Shown: positions 22,691 through 26,854 of the stretch, piece by piece
Numbering within the stretch: position 1 is the stretch's first letter
How the letters are laid out: the number at the start of each line of letters is the position of its first letter
Assembly: GCA_017654855.1 (NCBI GenBank)
Contig: CM030336.1
Coordinates: forward strand, 1,860,001 to 1,924,000
Length of the DNA stretch: 64,000 nt
Direction: 5' to 3'
Origin: Podospora anserina
Lineage: Eukaryota
Notes under the pieces: model-generated
Database searches by the model: none
Seen by the model: the letters and a program-made list of their open reading frames with translations, nothing else
What the model was told of the DNA's origin: nothing
Position numbers and translations under genes: made by a program

Positions 22691-24469
22691 ATGGTCTGTC
22701 TACTCTACCTATTCTTGTGTTCTCTCTTTTTCTAAACTAATCATACCCCGCTACAGGCTTCCTTCAGTCCCACCCAAATCTTCGAGGAGGGCACCACACA
22801 GGAGAAGGGTGAGAATGCCCGTCTCAGCGCCTTCGTTGGCGCCATCGCCGTCGGTGATCTGGTGAAGAGCACACTTGGCCCCAAGGGCATGGACAAGATT
22901 CTGCAGTCTGCGTATGTTGCTGGTCCTTGCTGTAGACGTTGTCATCATTTACTAATCTAGGTCATGTTCATCACAGCTCGACCGCCGAGATCATGGTGAC
23001 AAACGACGGTGCCACCATCCTCAAGTCCATCTCCCTCGACAACGCCGCCGCCAAGGTCCTCGTAAACATCTCCAAGGTTCAAGATGACGAAGTCGGTGAC
23101 GGTACCACCTCGGTCACCGTCCTCGCCGCCGAGCTGCTTCGCGAAGCCGAGAAGCTCGTCGACAAGAAGATCCACCCCCAGACCATCATCGAAGGGTACC
23201 GGATAGCCAGCCAGGCCGCCCTCAAGGCCCTCGAGGCCTCTGCGGTCGACCACAGCAACAACCCCCAAGCGTTCAGAGAAGACCTCCTCGCTATCGCGCG
23301 GACGACGCTGAGCTCCAAGGTGCTCGCCCAAGACAGGGATCACTTCTCCAAGCTCGCGGTCGATGCCATCATGAGACTCAAGGGTTCTTCCGACCTCAGC
23401 CACATTCAAATCATCAAGAAGGCCGGCGGCAAGCTCTGCGAGTCATACCTGGACGAGGGTTTCATCCTGGACAAGAAGATTGGCGTCAACCAGCCCAAGC
23501 GCCTCGAAAACGCAAAGATCCTCGTCGCCAACACGTCGATGGACACGGACAAGGTCAAGATCTTCGGCGCGCGCCTCAAGGTCAGCTCGACCGCCAAGCT
23601 GGCCGATTTGGAAAAGGCCGAGAAGGAAAAGATGAAGGCCAAGGTGGAGAAGATCAAGGCGCACGGGATCAACTGCTTCATCAACAGGCAGCTCATCTAC
23701 AACTGGCCCGAGCAGCTTTTTACGGATGCCGGCATCATGTCGATCGAGCACGCCGACTTTGACGGCATTGAGCGGTTAGCTCTCGTGACGGGCGGCGAGA
23801 TCACCTCGACGTTTGACCACCCGGAATCCGTCAAGCTCGGCCACTGCGACTTGATTGAGGAGGTGATTATTGGTGAGGATACCCTGATCAAGTTCTCGGG
23901 CGTGGCTGCTGGACAGGCGTGCACGATTGTGCTCCGCGGTGCGACAGATCAGCTGCTCGACGAGGCCGAGCGCAGTTTGCACGACGCGCTCGCTGTTCTT
24001 TCCCAGACTGTCAAGGAGCCCCGGACGACGCTTGGTGGCGGTTGTGCCGAGATGGTGATGGCCAAGGCTGTGGAGGGGGCTGCTACCCGGGTCGAGGGCA
24101 AGAAGCAGATGGCTGTTTCTTCCTTTGCTGTCGCTCTCAGACAGCTGCCTACTATTCTGGCGGACAATGCCGGTCTTGATTCCGGGGAGCTGGTTGCTCG
24201 CTTGCGCAAGGCTATATATGATGGCTTGACCACGTATGGTCTTGACCTGATGACGCCTGGTGGCGGCATCACGGACATGCGGGAGCTTGGTGTTATTGAG
24301 AGCTACAAGCTGAAAAAGGCGGTGGTTTCTTCGGCTAGTGAGGCGGCCGAGGTGAGTTTTTTTTCTTTTCCGTCCCTTTCGTGGCCAGTGACTGACGTAG
24401 TGTTTGCAGCTCCTGCTCCGTGTGGATGACATAATAAGGGCGGCCCCCAGAAGGCGTGAGAGACATTGA
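22691..24469 (+). CDS. CCT2: Chaperonin CCT/TCP-1 beta subunit, 4 exons (introns 22694-22756, 22912-22976, 24352-24409)
   Basis: [52 protein letters not shown] and C-terminal [15 protein letters not shown]. Confidence 0.96.
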
Positions 24470-24634
24470 AGCGTGATGTGCTGGACGGTAGCATTAGCAT
24501 GAGCGGGCCAGGCCTGTATAATATCACCCTTTTAGACGGCCTGAATGAAAAAAGAATATCGACATCATCTGTCATGTCACCACCGATACCCAAGAAGATA
24601 GCGTCAAACGATGGTGTGTTATTACTATGCAATC

Positions 24635-26854
24635 TTACACATCCCAAACAACCTCCAAAACCTCATCCACAGGCTTCTTATCCTTCCCCCTTGGTGCGCG
24701 GTAGATGTACAACTGTCTAAACTGCTTCTTTCTCTTCCCTTCCCCAGTCCAGTAGGCATCCACAAGCAACCACTGCTTTTTTTGTCCCTCTCCGAGCCTT
24801 GGTCGCAAGGGGCCGTAGGCTTCGTCGTAGTCGCCCGAGGAGGCGTACTGCCATGTTGCTTCGACTTTTTGGAGGTCGGGGAAGGAACCGGGAGGGAACT
24901 CGGTGTAGGAGTAGCCGTTTACCCAGAGACCCACGGTGGAGGAGGAGGAGGAGGAGGAGGAGGAGGTGGTGGTGGTGTTGCAGCCGGTTTTGAATCGTTG
25001 GAGGAAGCAATCGCCGCAGAGGGAGGTGATGGCAGACATTTGGGGGATTGGGGCGTGGAACCAGGTTTTATAGTGGTGGAGGCTTAGGAGGGGGGGGGAG
25101 GGGGGGTTGTCTCTAGGGCGGAGGAGGTCGGGTGTGGGGAGGTGTTTGGGATGGGGGTTGGAGGGGTTGGCTGCTCGGTCGAGGAAGCCGGTGAGGGGGA
25201 TCCATATGCGGGAGGAGAGGGAGGGGTGGTCCCATTTTCCAGTGCCTCTCCCACCAGCGGCACCACCGCCTCTTTCTTCCCGAGGGAGGTGTTGAACGTC
25301 GCTGGGAGGGATGGGAGGGTGGTCCCATTTTCCAGTCCCCCTCCCCCCGGCAGCACCACCGCCTCTGTCCTCCCTCTTCTCTCCCCCCCTCCACCTTTCG
25401 GTACCTCTGCCACCAGCAGCACCACCGCCTCTCTCCTCCCGGCGGTGTTGTTCGGGATCTCTTGGTGGAATCCCAGGGTTCTTCCATGGGTCAAGATACC
25501 TCCTCGTCCCCCGTCCCCCAGCAGCACCACCCCCCCTCTCTTCTCTCTTCACGCGTTTGTGATCTCTCGGTGGAATCCCAGGGTTATGCCACTGATCAAG
25601 ATACTTCCCCTCCCCTCCTCCCCGCCTCTCCCCCCCCCTCCTCCCCACCCGTCCCCCCTCAAAGAAACCAGAAACATCCCCCCTCAAATCCCCCTGCCAC
25701 AACCCCCTCACCTCCGTCAGCCTCACTTCCGTAAACCCATAAACACAATCCCTCAACAGCCCATCCCCCCCTCTGTCCCCCCCCCCATACTCAACCGCAC
25801 ACCTCTCAAAGTAGGGAACCAGCTGCCTAGCCAGCGGCACAGAAACAAACAACCCCGCCCCCCCAAACGCCATCTCCCCGTACTGTCTATTCGCCGATTT
25901 GCTTTCTGACCTGGCACCGAGATACAACGGCACTGACGGGTCATATCTTCCCAACGCAACCGACAGGCGGTGCAGAGACGGAAAAAAAGTGTCGTCGTCG
26001 ATGAGGGAGAGAAACGTGGTTTGGGGGGTGGAAAAGGATAACAACGTCGACAAGAGGAGGAAGTGCAGTTGGGGGGTGCTGTAATTCTTGGTGTGGGCGG
26101 GGGGTGGAGGGGGGAGGGCGGAGACTAAGATGGAGCGGGAGTGGTACAGTTTTAATAGGGAAGATGAAGAGGCAGAGGGCGAAGGGAGGGAGTGGTAATC
26201 TGTTATTGTGAGGATGAGTCTTGATTTGGAGTGGGACAACCAGTGGGCGAATGCTGAGAGGGTGGACTCGGAGGAGAGACGCTCGTAGGTGGAGGCTACG
26301 CCGAAGATGAGCTCCGGGTGGGGGGTTTTGGGGTAGGGGTTTGAAACGGGGAGGGAGATGGGGGTGCACGGTGGGAGGGAGAGGTTTTCGTCGCTGAGGG
26401 TGAGGCCGATGGTTGATTTGTCTGAGGTGAAAGGCGTGGTGATGTTAGAGACAAGATTTCGATCGACGGTCTTGTCGTAAACGGGTTTGATGCATTGCTG
26501 GGTGTAGAGGATTGTGTCTGTGAGGCCAAACTTTTCCTGTCGAAGGTATTCCAGCTCCGGAGGTCGAGCGAGGTTCCGACTTGACTTGCCTTCTACCGGG
26601 AGCTCTGGCGGTTTTGGTTCTTCTGCGGCATTGTCCGCTTGCGGGGTGAAGGGTGAGACTTTGTCTGGGTGCTGTCGGTCGAGATGGAACCATTCCCCCG
26701 CTAGGTTCTCAACCATGGACTGAGCGGCTGTGATGGAGACGGTTGGCGGGATTCCATTGTGAACTCGGAGGGCGGTAAACAGCAGGAGACTCAGGATAAC
26801 CGACAGCAATACCAGGGTAGCTCGTGAGAAACACCGTGGGGTCACCATCATCAT
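24635..26854 (-). CDS. GT31/Fringe-like (DUF604-type) glycosyltransferase, type II membrane protein, with a large repeat insertion
   Basis: N-terminal TM segment (TLVLLSVILSLLLF); LIFGVASTYERL, IDDDTFF (DxD), MAFGGAGLFVSVPLA, GGDGLLRDC, GDVSGFFE and LSLHHYKTW. Start chosen at MMMVTP (26854). Confidence 0.85.
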   Translation of the reverse strand: MMMVTPRCFSRATLVLLSVILSLLLFTALRVHNGIPPTVSITAAQSMVENLAGEWFHLDRQHPDKVSPFTPQADNAAEEPKPPELPVEGKSSRNLARPPELEYLRQEKFGLTDTILYTQQCIKPVYDKTVDRNLVSNITTPFTSDKSTIGLTLSDENLSLPPCTPISLPVSNPYPKTPHPELIFGVASTYERLSSESTLSAFAHWLSHSKSRLILTITDYHSLPSPSASSSSLLKLYHSRSILVSALPPPPPAHTKNYSTPQLHFLLLSTLLSFSTPQTTFLSLIDDDTFFPSLHRLSVALGRYDPSVPLYLGARSESKSANRQYGEMAFGGAGLFVSVPLARQLVPYFERCAVEYGGGDRGGDGLLRDCVYGFTEVRLTEVRGLWQGDLRGDVSGFFEGGRVGRRGGERRGGGEGKYLDQWHNPGIPPRDHKRVKREERGGGAAGGRGTRRYLDPWKNPGIPPRDPEQHRREERGGGAAGGRGTERWRGGEKREDRGGGAAGGRGTGKWDHPPIPPSDVQHLPREERGGGAAGGRGTGKWDHPSLSSRIWIPLTGFLDRAANPSNPHPKHLPTPDLLRPRDNPPSPPLLSLHHYKTWFHAPIPQMSAITSLCGDCFLQRFKTGCNTTTTSSSSSSSSSTVGLWVNGYSYTEFPPGSFPDLQKVEATWQYASSGDYDEAYGPLRPRLGEGQKKQWLLVDAYWTGEGKRKKQFRQLYIYRAPRGKDKKPVDEVLEVVWDV

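Follow-up and report, generated by a model that had tools for sequence, protein, structure and literature searches.

The locus examined here raises the question of why the gene of a fungal glycosyltransferase should carry, close to its catalytic residues, a long in-frame array of peptide repeats. The gene lies on the minus strand of a stretch of 64,000 nucleotides (nt) of Podospora anserina DNA (assembly GCA_017654855.1, contig CM030336.1, positions 1,860,001 to 1,924,000), called the window below and numbered from its first letter, and it encodes a GfsA-like enzyme of the GT31 family. The array had been noticed in an earlier annotation made from the sequence letters, here called the original prediction. 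The reading that we favour, with a probability of about 0.5, is that the insert would be a lineage-specific, selected and disordered repeat loop at the rim of the active site, acting in cis or via a partner. The evidence comes from the codon patterns of the repeat copies, from contigs of transcripts and from the comparison with homologous proteins.

Structure of the insert

The gene and the elements of the insert are the following (aa, amino acids):

24635..26854, minus strand: whole coding sequence of a GfsA-like GT31 / DUF604 / Fringe-like glycosyltransferase, single exon, 739 aa plus stop (ATG at 26854, start MMMVTPRCF, stop at 24635)
25094..25648, minus strand: 185-aa insert, aa 403-587 (193 residues versus 7-14 in the homologous linker; low model confidence; colinear contig cover)
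25505..25543, minus strand: core copy 1, EERGGGAAGGRGT, aa 438-450, after VKR and followed by RR
25400..25438, minus strand: core copy 2, EERGGGAAGGRGT, aa 473-485, after HRR
25334..25372, minus strand: core copy 3, EDRGGGAAGGRGT, aa 495-507, after EKR
25241..25279, minus strand: core copy 4, EERGGGAAGGRGT, aa 526-538, after LPR, without a dibasic pair
25562..25591, minus strand: WHNPGIPPRD unit, aa 422-431
25457..25486, minus strand: WKNPGIPPRD unit, aa 457-466
25298..25327, minus strand: WDHPPIPPSD unit, aa 510-519
aa 403-437: repeat unit U1, with a degenerate core
aa 438-472: repeat unit U2
aa 473-494: repeat unit U3, truncated
aa 495-525: repeat unit U4
from aa 526: repeat unit U5, which runs into a Pro-rich tail
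25087..25106, no strand: G/C homopolymer tract at the 3′ end of the insert, found by Tandem Repeats Finder (TRF), where the P. comata model comes back in frame and the P. pseudopauciseta model ends

The insert separates the motif GDVSGFFEGGR (aa 392-402) from PLLSLHHYKTW (from aa 588), and the 185 in-frame residues counted between them (25648..25094) agree well with the roughly 190 of the original prediction. The latter was exact in its description of four copies of E(E/D)RGGGAAGGRGT, including the one at 25543-25505, and of three W..P.IPP.D units, as well as in placing three of the four Gly-rich copies directly after KR or RR. Taken as a whole, the insert is made of five units of one ancestral repeat, each 22-35 aa long and composed of a core, followed by (K/R)(Y/W)-LD-W-NPGIPPRD and then by a basic end. 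This five-unit structure is confirmed by the repeat pairs detected at the DNA level, whose spacings of 93, 105 and 159 nt are all multiples of 3, and all the copies lie in one codon phase. A degenerate DNA pattern of the core found 4 matches in the window, all of them within the glycosyltransferase gene, and 0 in 100 shuffles, while a Pfam scan of the insert gave no family. The insert holds 36 Arg/Lys residues (28 Arg and 8 Lys) versus 23 Asp/Glu. An AlphaFold2 model predicts it as a disordered loop that does not disturb the enzyme fold, with a predicted local distance difference test (pLDDT) score below 50 at residues 405-576 and scores of at least 90 for 359 of the 739 residues, nearly all of them outside the insert. 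Two other identities were considered and rejected. An antisense gene across the insert is disfavoured because the other frames translate the cores less conservatively. An intein, judged by the general rules for intein junctions, does not fit a segment that starts with VGRR, ends with PPSP before PLLS, and lacks both the junction Cys/Ser/Thr and the His-Asn.

Selection on the repeated core

The four cores, of 39 nt each, vary at 12 columns, 11 of which are third codon positions and one a first position (synonymous CGG/AGA), with a single amino acid difference (E/D); the codon differences quoted in the original prediction (ACG/ACC/ACT/ACT for Thr and CGG/AGA/AGG/AGA for Arg) were verified. Under a uniform spread, at least 11 of 12 third-position columns would be expected with a chance of 4.7e-5, a value that is inflated, as the limits of the cores were picked by amino acid identity. 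The repeat pairs defined on the DNA offer a less biased test, and their differences at codon positions 1, 2 and 3 are 5, 0 and 9 (p=0.013), 5, 6 and 17 (p=0.009), and 8, 6 and 9 (not significant). An excess of third-position change is therefore found in two of the three pairs, and the non-significant pair (D4) includes the decayed unit U1. As estimated by the Nei-Gojobori method (NG86), the core-containing segments show ratios of non-synonymous to synonymous divergence (dN/dS) of 0.02-0.10, at dS values from 0.8 to saturated. In the case of the Trp/Pro tail units, dN is 0.25-0.31 for the three pairs, and dS could be estimated in one pair only (0.81, with a dN/dS of 0.38), the other two being saturated. 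When the same core DNA is translated in the other two sense frames, the products are far less consistent.

The third-position excess, together with low dN/dS at high dS, suggests that the copies are old, have escaped homogenisation by conversion and have been maintained at the peptide level, which bears out the claim of the original prediction that selection acts on the peptide, as opposed to DNA slippage. These codon patterns indicate that the 13-residue Gly/Arg core is under constraint at the amino acid level among the copies, and the dS among units (0.8 to saturated) indicates that the five units were duplicated long before the P. anserina species complex arose.

Transcription across the insert

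A stretch of this kind could also lie outside the protein, as an intron or an annotation artefact. The retention of the insert in RNA, which the original prediction had left to be checked, was addressed with the contigs of 4 of 21 sequencing runs (X1, X6, X10 and X11), each from a different study, whose kind was guessed, as the records carry no RNA label. Contigs of this sort lose rare forms, their holes prove nothing, they do not allow transcript levels to be read, and some DNA carry-over is possible. However, the 58-nt GT..AG intron of a neighbouring chaperonin gene (24350-24407) has been removed in the contigs of all four runs, and its unspliced copy was assembled in none of them, so the contigs derive from spliced transcripts. 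In the same four runs, no joint was found inside the glycosyltransferase gene. A single contig of run X1 covers 24988-25656 without any difference or gap and thereby includes both junctions and all of the insert between them, and the other runs cover it in part (X6, 25111-25519; X10, 25113-25341; X11, 25141-25304 and 25394-25550). The insert is present in transcripts.

The intron reading finds some support in the protein models of C. samala, T. setosa and T. verruculosa, which lack the insert, the one of T. setosa (P0006) being also devoid of the conserved VSGFFE, and in the presence of an antisense frame that is likewise free of stops across the 555 nt of the insert (0, 1 and 4 stops in the sense frames; 0, 3 and 2 in the antisense ones). 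Besides the contigs, it has against it that the hypothetical removal from the GT at 25648-25647 to the AG at 25084-25083 would take 566 nt, a length not divisible by 3, and that the third-position pattern fits sense frame 1 only. Altogether, an intron or artefact seems extremely improbable.

The enzyme and the position of the loop

The open frame that holds the coding sequence runs, from stop to stop, from 27145 to 24635 on the minus strand. A Pfam scan of the 739-aa protein detected DUF604 (6.4e-11) and Fringe (8.2e-07), both above the cut-off. With an alignment of 47 homologs (A3), a profile search of the Protein Data Bank (PDB) gave one strong structure match, the AfGfsA chain 8yrl_A (E 3.9e-86, profile positions 107-514). 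A Foldseek search with the AlphaFold2 model found the same structure (E 1.6e-29, template modelling (TM) score on the target 0.78), other GT31/GT-A enzymes being far weaker. The residues that correspond to functional positions of AfGfsA, whose roles are given as in the accessible part of the structural report (PMC11538602), are the following:

26762..26824, minus strand: N-terminal hydrophobic helix, aa 11-31, presumed type II signal anchor (AlphaFold2 helix; ATLVLLSVILSLLLFTAL after an Arg-containing tail)
25991..25999, minus strand: DXD motif D286-D288, equivalent to AfGfsA D260-D262 (invariant in A3; HMMER alignment)
25763..25765, minus strand: D364, equivalent to the AfGfsA catalytic base D335 (G363-D364 invariant; HMMER alignment)
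25688..25690, minus strand: D389, equivalent to the AfGfsA acceptor-binding D360 (nearly invariant column; HMMER alignment)
25073..25078, minus strand: H593-H594, equivalent to AfGfsA H379 (Mn2+ ligand) and H380 (UDP contact) (invariant; alignment)
aa 598: W598, equivalent to AfGfsA W384, UDP contact (nearly invariant in the 47 rows)

By its sequence, the protein is a GfsA-like GT31 enzyme whose catalytic residues are intact. As with AfGfsA (PDB 8YRL, a GT31 beta-(1->5)-galactofuranosyltransferase), to which it is similar over its full length, it shows the DXD, the catalytic-base Asp, the acceptor Asp and the HH pair, and it would begin with a membrane anchor followed by a lumenal domain. Its N-terminus, a 20-residue hydrophobic helix behind a basic tail, resembles the type II anchor of AfGfsA, for which the available part of the same report describes an N-terminal transmembrane segment. 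On the other hand, both proteins are only about 18% identical, the HHW motif of AfGfsA is HHY in Podospora, and the 8-residue linker of AfGfsA (SGRKIESL) is replaced by 193 residues. Moreover, the Podospora gene belongs to an ortholog group on a long branch, with members seen in seven species of Sordariales. In the protein tree, which comprised 14 of 51 proteins (the seven orthologs and seven more distant homologs), this group has a support of 100/100 and a stem of 0.81 changes per site, a long branch that points to divergence or relaxation of this paralog within the GfsA family. The HHY reading (aa 595, 25070-25072) is that of the P. anserina complex, the Trp being nearly invariant across the 47 homologs.

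According to the part of the AfGfsA report that could be consulted, the GT-A domain comprises residues 160-360 and the beta-sandwich residues 76-159 and 361-535, and Mn2+ is bound by the DXD (D260 and D262) and by the C-terminal H379 (PMC11538602). As the GT-A domain ends at 360 and the beta-sandwich resumes at 361, the insert would lie just past the domain boundary. The Podospora equivalent of the C-terminal Mn2+ ligand, H593, is found five residues downstream of the end of the insert.

Occurrence of the insert in homologs

The length of the linker between E399 and the first His was compared in the 47 rows of A3, from which four models that were frame-shifted, mis-spliced or truncated (P0003, P0004, P0007 and P0051) had been left out. 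This linker has 8 residues in 34 rows, 9 in seven rows, and 7, 13 and 14 in one row each, whereas it reaches 193 residues in three rows, namely the window protein, P. pseudocomata and P. bellae-mahoneyi. All of the 44 rows outside the P. anserina complex thus have 7-14 residues (8-9 in 41 of them), in accordance with the original prediction that both flanking motifs are nearly adjacent in fungal GT31 homologs. The alignment, which that prediction had proposed, reveals a real in-frame insertion in the GT31 catalytic region, with no loop of similar size in these homologs.

Outside the complex, the ortholog of Apiosordaria backusii (P0007) is the only one whose model bears repeats, with five RGGGAAGERGT cores at a 22-aa period. 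After the cores, its sequence ...TPRDLQHLPSRIWIVIVRFFDRGNHP...PPLLSLHHW matches the Podospora tail IPPSDVQHLP...SRIWIPLTGFLDR...HP, both sharing the pattern D(V/L)QHLP...SRIWI...F(L/F)DR. The model skips the conserved segment with the catalytic base, which suggests that its upstream splice is probably wrong, and the repeats are in frame with the downstream exon. The enzyme bodies of both species are separated by about 0.5 changes per site in the protein tree, and the 11-residue core is still kept. In this tree, A. backusii is no nearer to Podospora than an ortholog modelled without the insert, and C. samala is nearer (92/98). As C. samala, with no insert in its model, is thus closer to Podospora than the insert-bearing A. 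backusii, the insert would most likely predate the whole ortholog group, and the models of C. samala, T. setosa and T. verruculosa would reflect either a loss or an intron call. The lack of VSGFFE in the T. setosa model points to an insert called as an intron. In the C. samala model (P0005), GMGIGMG replaces the conserved SGxxPLS linker. From their sequences, the public gene models P0007, P0006 and P0005 look unreliable around the insert.

Within the species complex, the insert is found in the protein models of P. anserina S (P0003), P. pseudocomata, P. bellae-mahoneyi, P. pseudopauciseta and P. comata, and the copy in the window is 100% identical to that of P0003. Substitutions relative to the window protein, compared by Fisher tests, are distributed as follows:

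P. pseudocomata: body 11/551, insert outside the cores 11/133, cores 2/52
P. bellae-mahoneyi: body 12/551, insert outside the cores 10/133, cores 2/52
P. pseudopauciseta: body 10/401, insert outside the cores 9/112, cores 3/52

At this short distance, the cores are statistically inseparable from the rest of the insert. Two of the other models of the complex are broken. That of P. comata (P0004) goes off frame after the first GGGAAG and comes back at the final Pro run, with about 150 residues in sense frame 2, whereas that of P. pseudopauciseta (P0051) has a 20-aa deletion and a stop at the end of the insert, and is left without the HH motif and the C-terminal domain. In both models, the break coincides with a G/C homopolymer tract. 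A similar shift affects the older model of P. anserina S itself (P0003), in which about 80 residues of the body (aa ~248-332 of the window protein) are in another frame and the DDD motif is lost. This double shift begins at a poly-Pro homopolymer tract and is seen neither in the window nor in the RNA contigs, and it is probably a sequencing or annotation error in the record. The homopolymer location and this probably erroneous shift make assembly error plausible for the breaks in P. comata and P. pseudopauciseta, which is a live explanation next to real decay of the gene.

Wider searches point to a narrow distribution. A phmmer search with the insert against 1.84 billion representatives recovered P0007 only (E 6e-4). 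Word-based searches, restricted to proteins of about 400-1270 aa, recovered only three clusters of the P. anserina complex with the insert, and only P0007 with its own repeat region. An ESM Atlas search with the insert gave no usable match. In metagenome contigs, a search with the Podospora protein left 55 stretches matching a pattern, none of which encoded a relative, and the degenerate core pattern was found in 95 single-match stretches. Comparison of these 95 stretches with the Podospora protein by tblastn gave no match with the low-complexity filter on. With the filter off, the matches listed had identities of 27-45% (64% for one 14-residue piece) over the Gly/Arg-rich insert and the residues just before it, and none of those listed fell over the conserved N- or C-terminal parts of the enzyme. 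We take them as chance matches in GC-rich DNA.

Possible roles of the loop

In the most likely scenario, a translated and intrinsically disordered tandem-repeat loop would have entered a GfsA-type Golgi paralog at the short linker between its GT-A domain and the C-terminal half of its beta-sandwich. Flexible and strongly basic, the loop would project into the lumen from the edge of the active-site groove and display several copies of a short linear motif. This motif would most likely modulate the enzyme in cis or bind a lumenal partner, such as an acidic glycan or protein, or gate the donor or acceptor site. A source of free peptides would be less likely, and cleavage by kexin is compatible with the scenario but not required by the evidence.

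Several points weigh against a selected loop. Outside the cores, the insert changes 3-4 times faster than the enzyme body (p 0.001-0.011), and the conservation of the cores between species of the complex is not measurably above that of the body (Fisher p 0.18-0.34). Three ortholog models lack the insert and, if the breaks in P. comata and P. pseudopauciseta were real, the peptide would be dispensable there. In addition, the RNA evidence rests on runs of guessed kind, and contigs do not reveal transcript levels. Some of these points would fit a tolerated expansion of low complexity, in which a purine-rich, minisatellite-like repeat has grown in a tolerant surface linker, its frame being all that is preserved. 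Frame-shifted or truncated models in two of the five other gene models of the complex that were examined, the predicted disorder of the insert, its absence from all of the 44 more distant homolog models in A3, a unit U1 already without its core and a sense strand poor in T (12.4% versus 22.1%), in which stops are accordingly rare, are all in its favour. However, neutral repeats would vary equally across codon positions, and this is not what is observed in the cores, with 11 of 12 variable columns at third positions and low dN/dS at saturated dS. A passive repeat would neither explain the 11-residue core kept in A. backusii and, as the copies have not been homogenised at the DNA level, gene conversion does not account for their identity. 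We consider a purely tolerated expansion unlikely.

A different role had been put forward by the original prediction, for which the insert was a cassette of peptides released by Kex2. Fungal precursors of this type, the Kex2-processed repeat proteins (KEPs), are described in the consulted part of a survey as secreted proteins that carry a signal peptide but lack any membrane segment, and in which KR, RR or KK separates three or more repeats (PMC6339444). As in KEPs, which include the alpha-factor-type precursors, the Podospora insert shows several near-identical short units in a protein of the secretory pathway, with four copies, and three of them follow KR or RR and start with acidic residues. 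In contrast to KEPs, its repeats are found within a 739-aa and presumably membrane-anchored enzyme, peptides of like size between dibasic sites are not obtained, and the dibasic sites are not conserved alongside the repeats in A. backusii. Of the 8 KR/RR pairs of the protein, 7 map to the insert, a number no higher than its composition predicts (shuffle mean 5.3, P=0.26). Of the four cores, the first is the only one with a dibasic site at either end; the three cores preceded by KR or RR start with EE or ED, and the fourth follows PR. Cleavage in silico at dibasic sites yields EERGGGAAGGRGTRR (15 aa), YLDPW...HRR (20), EERGG...EKR (22) and a fragment of more than 90 aa with two cores. With regard to the conservation of the sites, which the original prediction had also considered, all the pairs are kept in P. 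pseudocomata and P. pseudopauciseta and the one at aa 410 is lost in P. bellae-mahoneyi, species too similar for this to mean much, but the five A. backusii cores are preceded by GG, ERD, QRD, KRD and EKD, with a dibasic pair near one of them despite the conserved core. Overall, the peptide-precursor cassette finds little support.

A simpler version, in which kexin (Kex2/KexB) would cut exposed KR/RR pairs in the late Golgi to give a two-chain enzyme and, optionally, release peptides such as EERGGGAAGGRGT and YLDPWKNPGIPPRDPEQH, is doubtful on the same grounds of composition, poor conservation, unequal fragments and a fourth core without a pair. The cleavage itself stays plausible because KR/RR is followed by acidic residues in a loop predicted to be disordered. 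In the accessible part of a study of fungal Kex2 substrates in vitro, cleaved sites over-represent acidic or small residues at P1′/P2′ and accessibility is required (PMC2515848), a preference that the EE/ED starts would fit. Likewise, the beta-sandwich of AfGfsA is formed from both termini, as far as the available text describes it (PMC11538602), and a nicked enzyme could stay assembled. The most elaborate form, a GfsA-like enzyme that doubles as a peptide precursor, in which kexin would cut at KR/RR-E(E/D), the two chains would be clamped by the shared beta-sandwich, and Gly/Arg and Trp/Pro peptides of 13-20 residues would be secreted for signalling or as antimicrobials, looks very unlikely, and a peptide-hormone role would be a long shot.

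The loop might also be a tethered acceptor. GfsA acts on O-mannose glycans and galactomannan, and some GT-A enzymes glycosylate themselves. By analogy with the latter, the core Thr (RGT) would be O-mannosylated and the loop would provide the enzyme with a primer, or a decoy acceptor, of its own. All four Podospora cores and all five of A. backusii retain one Thr, and the loop is predicted to emerge beside the acceptor-binding Asp and the Mn2+-binding His, as these roles are assigned in the consulted part of the AfGfsA report (PMC11538602). This proposal, which comes purely from position and conservation, appears highly improbable. A Gly/Arg-rich context is, to our knowledge, not a known signal for O-mannosylation.

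Comparison with other repeat insertions

Lineage-specific insertions of low-complexity or tandem-repeat sequence in the surface loops of enzymes are a general phenomenon, and both such insertions and the GfsA-type GT31 family are already known. The Podospora loop has much in common with them: it is predicted to be disordered, biased in composition, built of repeats and fast-evolving, it occupies the linker at a domain boundary, and it is absent from most homologs. It differs from them in the signature of purifying selection on its core, both among old copies and across genera, and in ending five residues before a catalytic metal ligand. What is unusual is the combination of this position with a selection signature on a 13-residue motif, in four or five old copies, within one small fungal lineage. 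No description of the insert was found in the consulted parts of the literature on Podospora glycosyltransferases, DUF604 or galactofuranose.

GfsA-type enzymes are responsible for the galactofuranose side chains in the cell-wall glycans of fungi, and a structure of one of them has been available, as far as we know, only since 2024. The locus offers a natural variant in which a 185-residue repeat loop, predicted to be disordered, would have been long kept right before the metal-binding His with the catalytic residues intact, and it shows which linker of the GfsA fold tolerates large insertions. It is also a tractable case, in a genetically amenable model fungus, for the role of a selected linear motif in the Golgi lumen, be it regulation, partner binding, proteolytic maturation or self-glycosylation. 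Even a merely tolerated loop would still illustrate clearly how selected repeat peptides can be told from products of slippage by their codon-position patterns.

Neighbouring gene and minor observations

The chaperonin gene used above as a splicing reference is a convergent neighbour of the TCP-1/cpn60 type (22936-24429, plus strand; Pfam Cpn60_TCP1, 2.3e-134). In two of the runs, one contig joins it to the 3′ end of the glycosyltransferase gene (24408-24928), and the 3′ ends of both genes would therefore be close or overlapping.

Downstream of the insert, a perfect (GGA)9.7 microsatellite (24938-24966) encodes a poly-Ser run (TTTTSSSSSSSSS, aa ~630-638 on the minus strand), which has three residues fewer in P. 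pseudocomata, P. bellae-mahoneyi and P. comata, and the transcript contigs break around it, at 24929-24987. Upstream of the insert, the contigs of X1 and X10 carry an extra GGG behind 26108, that is, one more Pro codon in a PPPPP tract, which is also present in the proteins of other species, and those of X1, X6 and X10 show an A>G change at 25982. Both differences look like strain polymorphisms within the species.

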